A stretch of DNA of 64,000 nucleotides from the NCBI RefSeq assembly GCF_030684315.1, contig NC_081356.1:16579197-16643196 (forward strand), read 5' to 3'. Below, in pieces: positions 1-61,774 of this stretch. Source of the DNA: Stegostoma tigrinum (taxonomy: Eukaryota). The position numbers and the translations under genes are program-made. The notes beneath the pieces were generated by a model that was given only the letters and a program-made list of their open reading frames with translations, was not told the origin of the DNA and made no database searches. Numbering within the stretch: the first letter of the stretch is position 1; each line of letters begins with the position of its first letter.

Positions 1-277
1 GCTGGTGAAGTCCACATTGATACCATTGGGCTGCAGGGTTCCCAAGCGGAATATGAGTTGCTGTTCCTGCAACGTTCGGGTGGCATCATTGTGGCACTGC
101 AGGAAGCCCATGGTGGACATGTCATTTAAGGAATGGGAGGGGGAGTGGAAATGGTTTGCGACTGGGAGGTGCAGTTGTTTATTGCGAACTGAGCTCTGAT
201 GAAGGGTCTAGGCCTTTTGTGCCCCTGAGATGCTGCTGGGCCTGCTGTATTCATCCAGCCTCACATTTTATTATCTT
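1..277 (-). mobile_element. Penelope-like element fragment (GIY-YIG C-terminus) joined to an inverted copy of its terminal repeat
   Basis: 1-194 is nearly identical to 12835-13025; 195-277 is the reverse complement of the terminal repeat at 12487-12580, with the cgaaacgtcagc part deleted. Confidence 0.85.
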
Positions 278-6776: not shown

Positions 6777-6993
6777 GATGTGGAGATGCCGGTGTTGGGC
6801 AAGGGTGGAAGAAGTCAGAAATCACTCTACACCAGGTTACAGTACAAAATGTTTATCTGAAATCACAAGCTTTTGAAGCGCTGCTCCTTTATCAGTTGAA
6901 GTCCTTAACTTGACAAATGAGCAGCGCATCAAAAGCTTGTGATTTTAACTAAACCTGTTGGACTGTAGCCTGCTGTGAAGTGATTTCTAACTT
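6777..6993. mobile_element. Palindromic Penelope-derived element, family 2, with degenerate hammerhead cores
   Basis: Inverted arms of about 85 bp between 6812 and 6993; the left arm's reverse complement reads ctgataaaggagcagcgcttcaaaagcttgtg (CUGAnGA-stem-GAAA core with G>A/C>T decay). Confidence 0.7.
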
Positions 6994-6999
6994 AAAATA

Positions 7000-8330
7000 A
7001 TGTAGATTTTGGTAGAGTTAATAGATTAAGTTCGTTAGGGAGATAACATTTGCTGTGGATAAAGAGGAACAGGTGGATGCATCATTCGGTGCCATATTAA
7101 AGGTTATTGGGAAAATAAAGTCTCATGGTGTAGGGGTCGCGTGTTGGCACTGATCAAAGATTGGTTAGCAGGAAGCAGAGCATAGGTATAAATATTCTTT
7201 TTCAAATTGACAAGTTATGAGAAGTGCGTCACAATGATTGCTGCTGGGATCTCAGTTGTTTACAGCTTATATGAATGCCTTAGATTGAGGTTTCGGCTGC
7301 CAAATTTGCTGACAGCAGAAAGATAGGTAGTAATATAAGTTGTAAAGACGACATAAGGAAGCTACAAAAATATATAGATAAGTCACGAAAGTGGGCAAAT
7401 ACATGGTAAGTGGAGCATAATGTGGGAAGATGTGAAATTCCCTATTTTGACAGGAGAAATTTTAAAAAAGAATACTATCTATATAATGAGTGATTGTAGA
7501 GTTTGAAAATGCAGAGGGGTCTGGGTGACCTCATGCAAGGATTGTAAAAGGCAAGTATACAGGCATAATAAATAATTAGGAAGTAATAGAATGTTATCAT
7601 ATACCATGAGGAAAATTGAATAGAAAAGTAGGGAGGTCATGCTTGGGTTATACAAGGCATTGGTGATGCCTTATCTAGAACACTGTGCACAGTACTGGGC
7701 GCCGTATTTAAGGAAGGATGTAAATTCATAAATCGGGGTAGTTCAGAGAAGGTTCATCAGACTAATACTTGGAATGAGAGATAATGGGAACTGCAGATGC
7801 TGGAGAATCCAACATGATACAATGTGAGGCTGGATGAACACAGCAGGCCAAGCAGCATCTCAGGAGCACAAAAGCTGACGATTCGGGCCTAGACCCTTCA
7901 TCAGAGAGCTTGGCCTGCTGTGTTCATCCAGCCTCACATTGTATCATACTTGGAATGGTTGGGGTTGCCTTATGAGGAAAGATTAGACAGGCTAGGGCTG
8001 TATAAGACATGATTTGACTGAAGCGTATAAAATGCTGATGGTTCTTAAAAATGTAGTTGTGGACTGGAGGCTTCATCTTATAAGAGAATCTACAGCTAGA
8101 GGTAACAATTGAAAAATCAGGGTTGCCCTTTTAAAACAGGGAATGGGCAAAATGCTTTCTGTCAGAGAGTCATCGGTCCATGGGACTCACTTCCTTAAAA
8201 GGTGGTGGAAGCAGAATCTTTAATTTTTTTTCTAGCAGAGGTAGATAGAATTCTGCTAAGCAAGATGGTAAAAGCTTATCAGGAGTAGCCTCAAGGAACT
8301 GAATGGCCTAATCCTTCTTTTAATTAATAT
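7000..8330 (+). mobile_element. CR1 LINE 3' portion (RT end plus 3'UTR), interrupted at 7777-7945
   Basis: KFAD...KIG, LY+ALV..LE.C.Q.W.P.LRKD-like motifs; CR1 tail gaatggcctaatcctt. Confidence 0.8.
7777..7945. mobile_element. Short Penelope-derived hairpin insertion (family 1) with TSD
   Basis: Terminal repeat (- strand) followed by a partial inverted arm; flanked by atacttggaatg at 7765-7776 and 7946-7957. Confidence 0.88.
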
Positions 8331-9139
8331 AGCAAATGAAAGCAGTCAGATCAGTTTCCAATTGCTCTTCCAAATAGCTGGCACAATATGATGAGTCCGC
8401 TGCTGTAAGCTTCATGGTGATGCAACATTGGTTAACTTCCGTGGTATATAAACGCTTTGTGTCAACAGCAGTTCATTTCTCTCGCCCCTTAATGGACCAA
8501 GATACTTTGCCACAATATATGAATTTATACCAAAGATGACTGAAAGCTTTGTTGGCTGGGTTTTATACATCATCTTTAAAGAGAGAGGATTGGAATAGCA
8601 AAGATGTCTTGCAAGTGAATTTCAGGAGGGAATTTCAGAGCTATAGCATGTGGGACAATTGAAGATATGACTGCTAATGGTAGAGAAAAGGAAGTAAGAC
8701 ATAAGCAAGGGATCAGAATATGAAGTATGAATAATTCACAAAGGACAGAAGATGTTCAGGGTGTTCCAGAGATAAAGGGTAATGGATAGATTTAAATGCG
8801 GCTCCAACAATATAAAAAGCATTGCTGGATTGGGAGCCAAGGTATGTCAGTGACCATAGATTTACCCTAATTAAATGGCACAATAAGAATTACCAGGCAA
8901 GCCAAAGTTTAAAGTTCAAGTTACCATAGTCCTACCAGACCACAGGCTGCTCTCTCATTACAGGCAAGCTGATCACAGTCAAACACCACAAATTCCTGAA
9001 GCTAAGCCAGTATCATGAGGAAGTCGATACAGCTCAGCATCACTGGCATTTCTTATGAAAAAACCAGGATGTTATTCATGAACAAACACAAGGTGTGTTC
9101 ACCAAGAGACCAGGATTTTCAGGTGGTACTGTACACATA

Positions 9140-9760
9140 CATCTGTTGATATTCTCCCTCTAGTTGACAGAGGTTGCAGGCTTGGAAGGCACTATTAGAG
9201 GAGACATGATGAAATACTGCAGTGCGTCTTGCAGATGGTACACACTGTTACCACAGTAAAGCAAATGAAGTGCCAGTCGAGTGGGCTGTATTGTCCTGGA
9301 TAGTGCCAGGATTCTCAGGCATTTTTGAAGCTGCGCCAATCCAGACAATTGGGAGTATTCCACACACTCCTGACTCATGCCTTATAGATGGCAGACAGAC
9401 ATTGGGCAGACAGAATCAGCATTCCCTCTAATTTTCAACCCACTGCACATGTCTCCAAGGCCCACATGTGGCACAGTGACATCCTGAACTGGAATGCACA
9501 GCATTCGGTGTGCTGACGCCGATTGCTGTGCATGGAACATTGGTGTGGCTGTGGCACACACTGCCACACAGCTTAGAGGGGAACATTGGTCAGGATGTGC
9601 TGCAGGATTCTTAGCCTCTGACATGCTGTTGTAGCCACAGGAATTGTACGGCCAGCCCAGTTCAGATTCTGGTCAATGGTGACCGCAGGATGTTTGTAAG
9701 TGGGGGATTCAGTGACAGTGATGCTTTTGAACAGCGCATTATCAATTAGTAATTTTGTGA
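9140..9760 (-). mobile_element. CR1/L2-clade LINE fragment with an internal insertion at about 9420-9605
   Basis: The - strand reads VTIDQNLNWAGRTIPVATTACQRL and SQECVEYSQLSGLAQLQ, typical of the end of a LINE RT. Confidence 0.6.
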
Positions 9761-10130
9761 TGTGCATCTCAAATTAATGAAATATATTTGCATCATTATT
9801 AAAGGAAGCTAACCAGAATAGTGCATGAATTGAAGGATTTAGGAAGCATAATATCTGCACGGGGAAGGTTGAACAAATAAATAAGAACAAGGATAACATA
9901 GGGAAGGTTGCACCAAATTTTTTTCCCCTTATCAACCTGCTCAGTGATGTTGTTACATGCCTCTGGAGCAGATGGGAATTGATCCCAGGTCTATGTCATT
10001 TTGAAGGTTAAGCCACTACCACAACAACCATAAGACGGCCCAAGTGAAGATTGTATTTGGTAAGTTGCAAATCCGAAAGCTAACTAGCCAATTCAAAAAC
10101 TTATTTGCAAAGAACTGGACTTGGATTGTT

Positions 10131-10356
10131 TCAGAGATAAAGGGAACTGCAGATGCTGGAGAATCCGAGATAACAAAGTGTGAAGCTGGATGAACACAGC
10201 AGGCCAAGCAGCATCTCAGGAGCACAAAAGCTGACGTTTCGGGCCTAGACCCTCTGTCTCTGATGAAGGGTCTAGGCCCGAAACGTCAGCTTTTGTGCTC
10301 CTGAGATGCTGCTTGGCCTGCTGTGTTCATCCAGCTTCACACTTTGTTATCTCGGA
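10131..10356. mobile_element. Near-perfect palindromic Penelope-derived element (family 1) with an intact hammerhead core
   Basis: Arms of about 90 bp (tccgagataacaaagtgtgaagctgg...gggcctagaccct and its exact reverse complement); TSD ggacttg/cgattgtt at 10117-10130 and 10354-10367. Confidence 0.9.
10258..10290 (+). ncRNA. Minimal type I hammerhead ribozyme motif
   Basis: CT-CTGATGA-A-GGGT(CTAG)GCCC-GAAA-CGTC^AG: conserved core, 4-bp stem II, palindromic ACGT in place of stem III; predicted cleavage after 10287. Confidence 0.7.
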
Positions 10357-11036
10357 CTTCGATTGTTGTTTTGTCTGATTGTCAGAATTGGACCTTACAT
10401 AAGGAGGCAACCACTCGCTAAATAATTTTGCAATGTGAGATGAAATTCTGGGGAGAGTCAATGAAGAAATCAATTTGTTGAACATAATTATGAACAAGGA
10501 GAGTATGTTTGGAATACGTTGGAAGAGAAAATTGCCTTGTATTGTGGGACGTTTCCGAGGAAAAGAGAAAGGTGTAACTACTCAAGGTTGTATAATGCAA
10601 TCTAATGCATTTTCAGTCTCCACTTTGTGATACAACTGTACATGTTTTGATATAACTACACTTAGTAATCAAATAACCACGGTATGATTTGGTAATTCAA
10701 TTCCCTTTACCTAATTATAAATATTTTTCTGAACTAATTGAACTTTATGTAAAATATGTCATTGACACATTGTTATCAGAAGGCCAACAGCGTCCAAATG
10801 TCATTGATCCTTCAATGCACAAAGCGAAAAGAAACGAATGAGCCTTACTAATTGGCATTTATTGATGTCCGGCCCTCATACAATTGTGGCGAATGGTGGG
10901 TTTCTTTAGAAATCGGGTCTAATGAGTGAGACTATATGAAAGGCGCGACACTGTTTCCTGTTATGGATTTTTTTTTCCATTTAGTTGGCTGCTAGCTTGG
11001 ATCAGCCAAGGACAAGGGGGACACGCGGAAAAGAAA

Positions 11037-11121
11037 ATGGGCTGGATTATTTTTAAATGGCTGCTCCTGGGGATCTGTACGAACTGCTTGATTCTTTCTG
11101 ACAGAAATGTTAATATTGTGG
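11037..11121 (+). CDS. lrp13: lrp13 exon 1: signal peptide
   Basis: aaaATGG Kozak context; MGWIIFKWLLLGICTNCLILSDRNVNIV hydrophobic leader; donor G|GTAAGT, phase 1. Confidence 0.8.
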
Positions 11122-11351
11122 GTAAGTTGCTAAAGTTGAGCTAATGAGATCGTCAATTCCTCGGCATTGAAGGTAATTGACTTTAGTGTATGTTGGTGAG
11201 GTTTTTAAAACCTGGGTGTGTTTTAATGTAACCTAACTTCTCTTGCGCTCGCAATGAGATTTCAGTAGTTGTGTGGTTGAATGGCGCTTCGCTGTGTGAG
11301 CGCGCACGTTATCCTTGTGGTTTCCTCGCTGACTCTCGGCTTGGCCTGCAG

Positions 11352-11465
11352 ATGGGGATCGGTGCCGACTATTTTGGCAGACACCCTGTGGAGATGGCTG
11401 TGCCCCAGTGTCTTGGCTGTGTGATGGAGATGATGATTGTCCTGGTGGTGTAGACGAACAATGCG
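11352..11465 (+). CDS. lrp13: lrp13 exon 2: LDLa 1
   Basis: ctgcag acceptor; DGDRCRLFWQTPCGDGCAPVSWLCDGDDDCPGGVDEQC; donor gtgag. Confidence 0.92.
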
Positions 11466-12224: not shown

Positions 12225-12486
12225 GTTAGATTTCCTACAGTGTGGAAACAGGCCCTCTGGCCCAACAAGTCCACATTACCCCTTGGAGCATCTTCTCTTC
12301 CCCACACCCCTGAACTCTATGGGCAATTTAGCATGGCCGATCCACCTAACCTGCACATCTTTGGACTGTGGGAGGAAACTGGAGCACCTGGAGGAAACCC
12401 ATGCAGACAGGGGGAGAACGTGCAAACTCCTCGCAGACAGTTTCCCCAGGCCCCTGGTGCTGTGTGGCTGCAGTGCTAGCCACTGT
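12225..12486 (-). mobile_element. HE1-like V-SINE (host of the Penelope insertion; its 5' end resumes at 14008-14020)
   Basis: cctaacctgcacatctttggactgtgggaggaaactggagcacc is the reverse V-domain; CR1-like tail at the left end. Confidence 0.85.
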
Positions 12487-14007
12487 AATAAAATGTGAGG
12501 CTGGACGAACACAGCAGGGCCCAGCAGCATCTCAGGAGCACAAAAGCTGATGTTTCGGGCCTAGACCCTTCATCAGAGAGGGGCAGATGGGGTGAGGGTT
12601 CTGGAATAAAGAGGGGGAGGTGGAGAGGAGGGGATAGGTCAGCCCAGGGAAGACAGATAGGTCAAGGAGGTGGGATGAGGTTAGTAGGGAGATGGAGGTG
12701 TGGCTTGGGGTGGGAGGAAGGGATGGGTGAGAGGAAGAACAGGTTAAGGAGGCAGACAGGTTGGACTAGTTTTGGGATGCAGTGGGAAGAGCTGGGCTGG
12801 TTTTGGGATGCGGTGGGGGAAGGGGAGATTTTGAAGCTGGTGAAGTCCACATTGATACCATTGGGCTGCAGGGTTCCCAAGCGGAACAAGTTCTGCTCCT
12901 GCAACCTTCAGCTGGCATCATTGTGGCACTGCAGGAGGCCCATGATGGACATGCCATCTAAAGAATGGGAGGAGGAGTGGAAATGGCTTGCGACTGGGAG
13001 GTGCAGTTGTTTATTGCAAACTGAGCGGAGGTGTTCTGCAAAGCAGTCCCCAAGCCTCCACTTGGTTTCCCCAATGTAGAGGAAGCCACACCAGGTACAG
13101 TGGATGCAGTATACCACATTGGCAGATATGCAGGTGAACCTCTGCTTAATGTGGAAAGTCATCTTGGGGCCTGGGATAGGAGTGTGGGGGCAAGTGTAGC
13201 ATTTCCTGCAGTTGCAGGGAAAGGTGGTGGGGTTGGAGGGCAGTGTGGAGTGAACAAGGGAGTCATGGAGAGTGAGAGAGCGTTACAAGCTGGTTGCCTG
13301 TGATGGAGACTGAGAGGTCCAGGAAGGTGAGGGATGTGCTGGAGATGGCCCAGGTGAACTGAAGGTTGGGGTGGAAAGTGTTGAAGTGGATGAACTGTTC
13401 TTGCTCCTCTAGGGAGCAAGAGGCGGTGATGATACGTTCATCAATGTAACGGAGGAAGAGGTGGGGTTTGGGGCCTGTGTAGGTGCAGAAGAGGGACTGC
13501 TCCACGTAACCTACAAAGAGGCAGGCATAGCTGGGGCCCATGCAGGTGCCCATGGCCACCCCTTAGTCTGTAGGAAGTAGGAGGAATTGAAAGAAGTTGA
13601 GGGTGAGGACGAGTTTGGCTAGGCAGATGAGGGTGTCGGTGGAGGGGGACTAGTCGGGCCTGTGGGACAGGAAGAAGCAGAGGGCCTTGAGGCCATCTGC
13701 ATGTGGAATGCAGGTGTATAGGGACTGGACGTCCATGGTGAAAACGAGGTGTGGGGGGGGGGGGGGCACCAGGGAATTGGAGGGCGTGGGTGCTGTCATG
13801 GACATAGGTGGGGAGTTCCTGGACCAAAGGGGAGAAAATGGAGTCCAGATAGGTGGAGATGAGTTCGGTGGGGCAGGAGCAGGCTGAGATGATGGTCGAC
13901 CAGGGCAGGCAGGTTTGTGGATTTTGGGAAGGAGATAGAAACGGGCCATGCGGGGTTGGGGAACAATGAGGTTGGAGGCTGTGGGTGGGAGGTCCCCTGA
14001 GGTGATG
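12487..14007 (-). mobile_element. 5'-truncated, frameshifted Penelope-like retroelement (RT plus GIY-YIG plus hammerhead-bearing 3' repeat)
   Basis: - strand ORF pieces FYLLPKIHKP, FTMDVQSLYTCIPH, AMGTCMGPSYACLF, FLRYIDE, NVVYCIHC..CGFLYIGETK..L..EH; 10-bp TSD tagccactgt at 12477-12486 and 14008-14017. Confidence 0.93.
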
Positions 14008-14384
14008 TAGCCACTGTGCCTGGTGAGCTTAGCTGCTGGAGCCAGTGTACTTAAAATTCACTTCTACAAGCAATAAATTGCAGATCATGTGCCAAGTAAC
14101 AGATTAGGATTTAGTTTGGTTGTCAACAGCATGTGGCCTAATTATATAAAACAAAAAAATTCCAAATGGAACACATGGGAGTAGAGCTTCCACTTTTGCC
14201 AACTATGAAATCATTGAATATGCTGTCCTAGTCATTTCAAATGAGCCAGTGCTGCATTAAGGCTTGTAATTAGCTTACTGCCCCCATGCAATGTGACTTG
14301 TTTGTTTCAATAATTGCCATAGCTACATGCAAAGTGAGGTATAAAAAATTACAATGTATTAATCAAATTGCCTGTTTCAACTGG

Positions 14385-14660
14385 CAATTTGGCCCAACAG
14401 GTCCACACTGACCTGCTGAAGAGCATCCCACCCAGACTGATCCCTGTAACCCTGCATTTCCCATGGCTAATGCATCTAACCTGACACCCCTGAACACTAA
14501 GCAATTTAGCTTAGCCAATCCACCCAACTGTCCCATTTGAGCTGGGAGGAAGCCAGAGACCCCTGCGAAATGTTGAGAACATGTGAACTCAAGTCACCTG
14601 AGGCTGGAATTGATCCTGGATCCCTGGCACTGAGGCAGCAATACTACATGCTGGACCATT
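14385..14660 (-). mobile_element. Degenerate HE1-like SINE
   Basis: ggcccaacaggtccacactgacc...gcaatttagcttagccaatccacc...gaggctggaattgatcctgg; similar to 12225-12486. Confidence 0.7.
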
Positions 14661-15026
14661 TGCTCTTGAGCAGCCTGGGTCTGATTTCTACAAAGGCTCA
14701 AATTGTATTGTAGTAGTGACAATTTGAAATCAAAGTAATCAAACTTCAGGTAGAAGATGGTAAAGACTGCAAATCCTGGAAGTCATCCACTAAAATGTAG
14801 AGCTGGAGAAGCACAGTAGGTCAGCCAGTATTGGAGCAGGACAGTTAATGTTTCAGGTCTGGGCCCTCTTTCAGCTCCAAAAAGAAAGTGCTTTTAAATT
14901 AAAGCAGCCAGAATTTGGTTTTAAACAATTTCTACAAATATTAAAGCAAATGGCTGTGCTATTCAGCCTGTTATGAATGTGTAGTCGTCAGTGGAGACTA
15001 ACTTGTGGAATTTGCATCTATCCTAG

Positions 15027-31544: not shown

Positions 31545-32130
31545 ACATGGGCTGTGTGTGATGCTTGACACATGTGGAATTTGCTCATTCTCCTTATCAG
31601 CATGGGTTTCCTCCAGGTACAGAGGTTTCTTCCCACAGTCCAAAGATGCATGGGCTAGGTGAATTGGCTGTACTAAATTGCCCATGGTGTTCAGGGATGT
31701 GTAGATTGGGTTATAGGGTGTGGGATGTTCTAGTCCATGTGGACTTATGGAAGCATGGCCTTCAGCCCAACACTAGGTTTTATGATTCAATGAATTTTTC
31801 CTCTTGTGCATTAGGAAAACAGGACAAGCAGTTTCAGCTGCTGTGCCCACTACTGGTTAGCATTGCTGTTTCACAGCTAAAAGGAGCCTAGGTTTGATTC
31901 CACCCTGTCAACTGTGCAAACAACTTTGGACATTCTTGTCATGTTTGCATGGGATTCTTTGGATGCTATAATTTCTTCCCCCACCCTGCCCCCCCCCCCC
32001 CCCCCCCCCAAACTCAGTCCAAAGATGTGCCAGTTAGGTGGATTGGCCATTGGAATTCAGGGTTAGTGTGGGTGTTTGGGTGGGATACTCTTCAGTTTGT
32101 GGACTGAATGGCCTGCTCCCACACTGACTT
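31545..32130 (+). mobile_element. Two adjacent HE1-like SINE copies
   Basis: catgggtttcctccagg...cccacagtccaaagatg and ...cagtccaaagatgtgccagttaggtggattggcca are V-domain sequences. Confidence 0.75.
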
Positions 32131-58111: not shown

Positions 58112-58216
58112 AAGAACTGCAGATGTTGGAGTCAGTCAGAGCTGGAAGAACACAGCAGGCCAGGGAACATCAGTGGAGCAGAAAAGCTGACATTTCAGGT
58201 GGGGGCACTTCAGAAA
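58112..58216 (-). mobile_element. Diverged family-1 Penelope terminus
   Basis: gaactgcagatgttggagtc...gctggaagaacacagcaggcca...aaaagctgacatttcagg, similar to 10140-10245. Confidence 0.65.
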
Positions 58217-61528: not shown

Positions 61529-61774
61529 TGAGGTTGTAGACTTGCTCCCTGAGCCAGTAGGTTTGGTTCATATGTTTCATCACCCTGCTCAGTAACATTG
61601 TTTAGTGTGCCTCTAATGAAGCATTAGTGTTCTGTCCTGCCTGTTAACCGAGGCATATAAATAACACTTGGAGAATACCAGTGCTTCACTGGAGGTGCAC
61701 TAAACAATGTTACCTAGCAGGGTGATGAAACATTGCAACCAAACACTGGCTCAGCAAGCAAGTCTGCAACCTCA
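61529..61774. mobile_element. Palindromic Penelope-derived element, family 3, with degenerate hammerhead
   Basis: Inverted arms of about 110 bp (tgaggttgtagacttgct...gaagcattagtgttct / agaataccagtgcttc...agcaagtctgcaacctca); core-like ctaaacaatGTTACCtagcagGGTGATgaaacatt. Confidence 0.7.

Follow-up and report, generated by a model that had tools for sequence, protein, structure and literature searches.

Much of what a Penelope-like element (PLE) can leave behind in a genome is already in print: pseudo-LTR (pLTR) hammerheads, opposite-strand hammerhead pairs, truncated single copies, and inverted copies with tails. Described insertions contain an inverted, 5′-truncated copy, a tail at one end and duplications of 8–10 bp (PMC3846280, PMC8557442), and the formation of the inverted ends was called still undefined in PMC8557442. 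PLE hammerheads are reported mostly from single, truncated copies and as opposite-strand pairs 100–700 bp apart (PMC4209133). A PLE protein from the green anole, predicted to be a dimer, nicks and extends both target strands; two RNA start sites bound the 30–40-nt tail, AT-rich DNA is preferred, and the hammerhead is described as dispensable for insertion and as showing no cutting without protein (PMC11167929). PLE-derived retrozymes have also been published, cartilaginous fish included.

Here we describe a hairpin within a 64-kb stretch of shark DNA (the window), which a sequence-only reading had presented as a hammerhead-bearing palindromic mini-retroelement with exact inverted arms of about 90 bp and a 14-bp duplication with one mismatch. 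Both measurements were confirmed. The arms (10164–10253 and 10267–10356) are 90 nt each, 100% complementary and separated by a 13-nt spacer, and the region has a minimum free energy of −204.4 kcal/mol (z = −26.2), which none of 200 shuffles equalled. Because other genomic copies stop at 10352/10353 and at the mirror position 10167/10168, we assign 87 nt to the element's own arms and the final GGA of the 90-nt match to the target duplication, which is thereby 14 bp long. The two duplication copies are identical at 13 of 14 positions at an offset of 237 nt (for a fixed offset, the probability of such a match by chance is about 2.5e-7). The left arm extends 36 nt beyond the right arm, to 10131, an extension that the sequence-only reading had overlooked, and the insertion as a whole (10131–10353) is 223 nt long and has no ORF.

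The hairpin is very probably a severely 5′-truncated PLE insertion, consisting of two head-to-head 3′ ends with a 36-nt tail and a 14-bp duplication, likely dead and neutral, with its hammerhead predicted to be trapped. It shows a pLTR linked to a reverse transcriptase (RT) and GIY-YIG endonuclease (EN), a head-to-head, 5′-truncated inverted copy, a tail at one end and, across the family, duplications of variable length. The 5′ truncation, inverted copy, head-to-head layout and variable short duplication are those of the inverted-pLTR-plus-tail insertions described in PMC3846280, PMC8557442 and PMC8969392, and the tail falls within the 30–40 nt given for one end of PLE insertions (PMC3846280, PMC8557442, PMC11167929). 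It differs from these products in that both copies are cut to about 100–123 nt, and the shark duplications (10–14 bp) are slightly longer than those of the rotifer copies. It is thus the shortest form of a known product. The non-LTR retrozymes (bioRxiv 10.64898/2026.07.22.740005; PMC7229834) are likewise short, protein-free and PLE-derived with a type I hammerhead, but are reported to consist of directly repeated tandem units that carry two or more complete hammerheads, whereas the shark hairpin is an inverted pair with one core. Coordinates of all features are collected in Table 1.

Table 1. Features of the hairpin insertion, the neighboring gene and related copies (positions in the window; a dot marks features without strand).
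Position	Strand	Feature	Remark
1–276	.	Third head-to-head junction: antisense PLE body (1–194) and sense pLTR	Other end beyond the window
7777–7945	.	Second independent hairpin of the family (7765–7957 with duplications)	Exact 12-bp duplication; different center
10117–10130	.	Left target-site duplication, 14 bp	Matches the pre-insertion site
10131–10166	−	36-nt PLE tail, on left arm only	Same extension in copies at 7777 and 41643
10167–10253	−	Inverted 87-nt pLTR	5′-truncated within the hammerhead, without CUGAUGA
10254–10266	+	13-nt unpaired center	PLE body end and first half of the hammerhead core
10260–10287	+	Minimal type I hammerhead core	Cut predicted after 10287
10267–10353	+	Sense 87-nt pLTR arm	Stops at the family's tail-less end point
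10354–10367	.	Right duplication copy	Single G>C change at 10360
11037–11121	+	First coding exon (signal peptide) of LDL-receptor-family gene	Gene extends to ~51536
12487–14007	−	5′-truncated, frameshifted Neptune-like PLE, intronic in the receptor gene	RT, CX4CXXC linker, GIY-YIG with CCHH
14792–14867, 58114–58199	−	Older pLTR-like copies, diverged	68% and 83% identity
41643–41763	+	Solo non-inverted pLTR with tail	13-bp duplication; degraded core

The origin of the arms can be traced within the window. The hairpin arm matches the 3′ end of the RT/GIY-YIG element at 12487–14007 with 91.7% identity over 84 nt, which upholds the PLE origin that had been proposed. The arm had, however, been taken for the terminal repeat of that very element; the shared family is borne out, but not the direct derivation, since the element is frameshifted, tail-less and mutated in its hammerhead core, and is therefore a relative of the hairpin rather than its source. 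The element is flanked by a 10-bp duplication and shows 79% identity over two blocks to protein P0025, which matches GIY-YIG above and RVT_1 below the Pfam cut-off (RVT_1, E 9e-5). None of three fragments of the element alone matched Pfam, so that its identity was established via homologues; a PDB search with protein P0024 gave no match to E 1. The RT–EN linker reads FPCNCRKCYTC in the element and FPCNRRKCYTC in P0025. A CX2-5CxxC linker at this position is reported as common to Neptune and Nematis and absent in Penelope/Poseidon, and judged by this motif, which could be of either Neptune or Nematis type, the hairpin's family is Neptune-like. A Poseidon-type label had been considered and was dropped, as the linker motif excludes Penelope/Poseidon. 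PAc, the Poseidon element of the green anole, likewise has two end points that delimit a tail, as well as AT-rich flanks and a pLTR hammerhead (PMC11167929), but belongs to the lineage described as lacking the linker. A search of published papers, as distinct from repeat libraries such as Repbase and Dfam, found no description of the shark family. Within the PLE body, a stretch rich in pyrimidines and containing TTCCAG (12570–12625, minus strand) immediately precedes the hammerhead and resembles a splice acceptor; in Drosophila virilis Penelope, an intron is described that terminates at the hammerhead. Another repeat, presumably of the shark V-SINE type, lies at about 12226–12486, 14379–14530 and 31589–31701, and the element at 12487–14007 is inserted into one copy of it.

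The window contains at least seven copies of the family. The second hairpin lies 2.3 kb from the main one with the same polarity and carries an A>T change in its core, and no two of the window's three inverted junctions are alike. Duplications were found in four of the five copies examined (14, 12, 10 and 13 bp in the main hairpin, the 7777 hairpin, the intronic element and the solo pLTR, respectively), two of them confirmed by empty sites, and none was found at the copy at 58140. This variability is consistent with the retrotransposition that had been suggested, against which a fixed duplication length would have counted. At 38 comparable arm sites, neither hairpin shows a difference between its own arms, whereas the two hairpins differ from each other at five, which indicates that the mirror half of each hairpin arose by copying when that hairpin inserted.

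Evidence on empty sites, ends and joints came from public contigs aligned to 7600–11200 of the window. A single 5205-nt contig of a relative (relative B) spans 7600–7764, 7946–10123 and 10361–11200, with the pieces contiguous in contig coordinates. It skips 181 nt and 237 nt, precisely the offsets of the two hairpins' duplications, and relative B thus has neither the hairpin at 10131–10353 nor that at 7777–7945. At the mismatched duplication position relative B has the letter of the left copy, which indicates that the right copy mutated when the element inserted or later. Between the flanks and relative B there are 145 letter differences and 22 gaps over 2178 nt (about 7%), and the insertion differs internally at one of 101 duplicated positions (87 in the arm and 14 in the duplication). 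The empty site and the low internal divergence show that the insertion is younger than the split from relative B. It is recent, as had been surmised, and lineage-specific, with an age estimate that is rough because inverted arms may be homogenized. Separate contigs enter the element from each flank; those of run X3, possibly the source sample, penetrate it by 26 nt and 25 nt, the left side falling below the 31-letter bridging rule.

Other copies in public contigs end where the hairpin ends. Among the 24 of 2610 rows considered in run X3, the best-supported loose ends fall at 10167/10168 (1018 and 826 records) and their mirror at 10352/10353 (610 and 598 records), and the flanks of these copies are A/T-rich. 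The centers are more diverse. From the best 15 of 1695 joints, 11 antisense-to-sense joints were mapped at nine different centers (sense coordinates 10258–10313), four of the 15 being left out of the center count; the shorter side of such joints is 20–27 letters, called at 85% likeness, a level prone to mis-assignment. Copies that share the center of the main hairpin align straight through and so are absent from this set. One other copy does cross that center (10189–10293, with 10 differences and 4 gaps), and 1-nt gaps at 10254/10256 occur in X3 (56 and 49 contigs) and X8 (38 and 34 contigs), although part of these contigs may be ordinary body–pLTR copies. A recurring center therefore exists among genomic copies, which is expected, as the CCCT microhomology alone would give one. 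The joints 7905→10258/10259/10261 mark a further recurring, near-perfect palindromic center immediately upstream of the core (commonest row, 26 contigs in X3 and 28 in X8), and this arrangement gives two complete hammerheads on opposite strands.

A single locus of this kind matters little, being one of very many PLE fragments. As a young hairpin with a confirmed empty site, it is nevertheless a clean specimen that displays both priming ends and the center in 223 nt, and the numerous short young copies for which a relative shows an empty site are a natural data set for the origin of PLE inverted ends and tails. The RNA 3′ ends of the hairpin both point outward, and each coincides with a different one of the two family end points. 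We lean towards a mechanism in which a GIY-YIG endonuclease supplied by an active member of the family would nick both target strands 14 nt apart and each nicked 3′ end would prime reverse transcription on element RNA. One cDNA would start at the tail-less site and the other 36 nt further on, both would stop after about 100–123 nt, and the two would be joined through CCCT, a probable 4-nt microhomology at 10250–10253.

Fold-back offers another route to the same product, which we consider possible but not probable. A cDNA would prime itself on the AGGG/CCCT stem to make a double-stranded, hairpin-derived intermediate, whose asymmetric resolution by the endonuclease would leave one arm with the tail. 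The identity of the arms within each copy fits this scheme more simply than, or at least as well as, priming at two nicks, and at the center of the main hairpin 4 nt are available as a stem around a loop of 13 nt. The authors of PMC3846280 favor self-priming, with an antisense template, and PMC8557442 ascribes the tail to endonuclease resolution, whereas PMC11167929 explains it by two RT start sites. The position of the extra central sequence, which lies on the tail-less arm in the main hairpin and on the tailed arm in the 7777 hairpin, speaks against it: the main hairpin cannot arise by simple snap-back of a tail-less cDNA primed at the target. Junction homology in the 7777 hairpin, read from the sequence, is only 1 nt. 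Fold-back would in any case alter the mechanism alone and not the identity of the element, and two-nick priming is the mechanism we favor.

The sequence-only reading had treated the hairpin as a distinct, MITE-like mini-element. This is not supported, given that the layout is a described outcome of PLE insertion and that centers vary among copies. A stronger version, a palindromic, non-autonomous, hammerhead-bearing retroelement ("retro-MITE") that is transcribed and reinserted as a unit by a PLE protein acting in trans, appears improbable. Other copies do cross the same center, and pLTRs are reported to suffice for mobilization in trans (PMC3846280). Joints of the tail-less end to the tail end (10352→7777 and 7777→7817), on opposite strands, were seen in X3 (48 and 31 contigs), a pattern that concatemers or circles would produce; none is present among the rows listed for the relative. 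However, at least nine centers occur among the 11 mapped joints, the three junctions within 64 kb differ, non-inverted solo and long truncated copies have the same ends, and the microhomology already predicts a recurring center. The end-to-end joints could equally reflect insertion beside an older copy, since PLEs often integrate adjacent to copies already present (PMC6765202). We give similarly little credence to the narrower proposal that a subset of the shark hairpins, the main center included, is mobilized as a unit by a Neptune-like protein via concatemeric or circular intermediates; if units were copied, the tail-less-to-tail-end joints would record such intermediates.

The hammerhead itself is complete in sequence, as had been reported. 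The hairpin holds a single intact core, CTGATGA-A-GGGT/CTAG/GCCC-GAAA-CGTC, on the plus strand, and no CTGANGA was found on its minus strand. The core comprises the CUGANGA, stem II and GAAAC–GUH elements with a palindromic stem III that a minimal type I hammerhead requires, with a stem II of 4 bp, an extra A after position 9 and a palindromic ACGU instead of stem III. The minimal hammerheads of metazoan PLEs share this core, including the extra nucleotide between 9 and 10.1, the G10.1–C11.1 pair, the palindromic 15.2–16.2, the lack of a loop 3 and the location in the pLTR (PMC4209133). Stem II and stem I are 4 bp and 2 bp in the shark hairpin, compared with 7–8 bp and 4–5 bp in Schistosoma; a 2-bp stem I is also reported in Drosophila virilis (PMC4209133). 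In the shark core, stem I runs into a U–C mismatch after 2 bp and is shorter than the 4–5 bp given for the class. The assignment to the minimal type I, dimer-forming class thus stands for the core elements but not for stem I. Unlike the metazoan PLE hammerheads, the putative shark hammerhead is embedded in a perfect hairpin. An Rfam search had been recommended as a check, and none of its 11 matches up to E 10 was to a hammerhead model, which is likely explained by the absent stem III.

Predicted folding disfavors activity throughout, in nearest-neighbor energies that ignore proteins, helicases and tertiary contacts. When the full element is folded, the probability of stem II is below 1e-6, and a fold constrained to the hammerhead is 49.9 kcal/mol worse than the hairpin. 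In folds of the growing transcript, arm-to-arm pairing exceeds 0.998 once stem II has been transcribed. The right arm alone favors an inactive fold by 7.5 kcal/mol, and for a dimer the protein-free estimate is −5.5 kcal/mol for the active and −38.0 kcal/mol for the best inactive form. In read-through RNA from the plus strand, the antisense arm would be transcribed first and zip up the core, and RNA from the minus strand would hold no complete core. Self-cleavage of read-through transcripts, which the sequence-only reading had envisaged, is therefore unlikely at this locus, because, by prediction, the core is captured during its transcription by the antisense arm that comes before it. These predicted folds agree with reports of low or protein-dependent activity of PLE hammerheads (PMC4209133, PMC11167929). 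Within the window, one of six copies of the hammerhead region has an intact core, as expected for decaying passengers, and the hammerhead is probably a passenger of the pLTR.

Downstream of the hairpin lies a gene whose Lrp13-like character had been proposed together with a distance of about 700 bp to its ATG. The insertion lies 670 nt upstream of the ATG at 11037, and this ATG aligns with residue 1 of three shark LDL-receptor-family homologues. For one exon, identity is 96% with a protein of the whale shark and 87% with one of the bamboo shark, which makes a carpet shark the likely host. The most similar homologue, P0001, the exons of which map across the window, has seven LDLa repeats and one more near the membrane, preceded by an extra N-terminal LDLa/YWTD module (assigned by eye). 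Teleost Lrp13 is described with 7–13 LDLa repeats and one extra C-terminal LDLa, and the proposed Lrp13-like layout is thus supported. None of 23 homologues is named Lrp13, the names including LRP1-like, LRP2-like, VLDLR-like and vitellogenin receptor-like; from its layout an Lrp13-like gene is plausible, and an egg-yolk receptor is likely. The shark product has about 1740 aa and the ray and skate homologues about 1250 aa. Homologues at 37–45% identity in mole, armadillo, whales, sheep and woodpecker suggest that an Lrp13-like gene may persist in some amniotes. An LDLa exon at 11354–11479 matches bamboo shark and catshark proteins, is absent from the whale shark isoform and is likely alternatively spliced.

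It is very unlikely that the insertion acts on this gene, whether through a pLTR promoter, dsRNA or small RNAs, spreading methylation or cleavage of an upstream transcript. We found no supporting evidence, and any effect would be species-specific. The insertion is close to the ATG, and its perfect duplex of 87 bp, once transcribed, would serve as a dsRNA substrate; dsRNA from the hairpin is possible only given transcription of the site. Promoters can also be carried by pLTRs (PMC3846280, PMC6765202). The relative, however, lacks the insertion at the orthologous position, the predicted fold sequesters the ribozyme, and with so many family copies in the window, proximity to a gene is unremarkable. 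In run X13 (kind unrecorded), a 162-nt contig over 10983–11121 stops at the exon-1 donor and looks like spliced RNA. Its 5′ loose end is apparently a Tn5 adapter. No contig among the pieces listed links the hairpin to exon 1, and neither X13 nor X16 (kind also unrecorded) covers 10383–10866, a hole in contigs that proves nothing. A promoter scan returned no sites, with a bacterial model that is uninformative for shark.

MITEs of DNA transposons are short, non-coding insertions with inverted repeats and a duplication. The hairpin shares this appearance, with its long inverted repeats and lack of coding capacity, but a DNA-transposon MITE or an assembly artefact is hardly tenable when the arms correspond to the 3′ terminus of an element that encodes RT and GIY-YIG, the ends are asymmetric, the center and the length of the duplication vary, independent contigs enter from each flank and the relative has a clean empty site. 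Annotators should beware of mistaking hairpin stubs of this kind for MITEs or microRNA hairpins. Two older, imperfect palindromes in the window (6812–6993, 81%, and 61561–61744, 84% complementary) show no match to the pLTR of the hairpin, and no duplications were found adjoining them. The mimicry extends to Rfam, where the top matches to the hairpin, all below the cut-off, were microRNA models.
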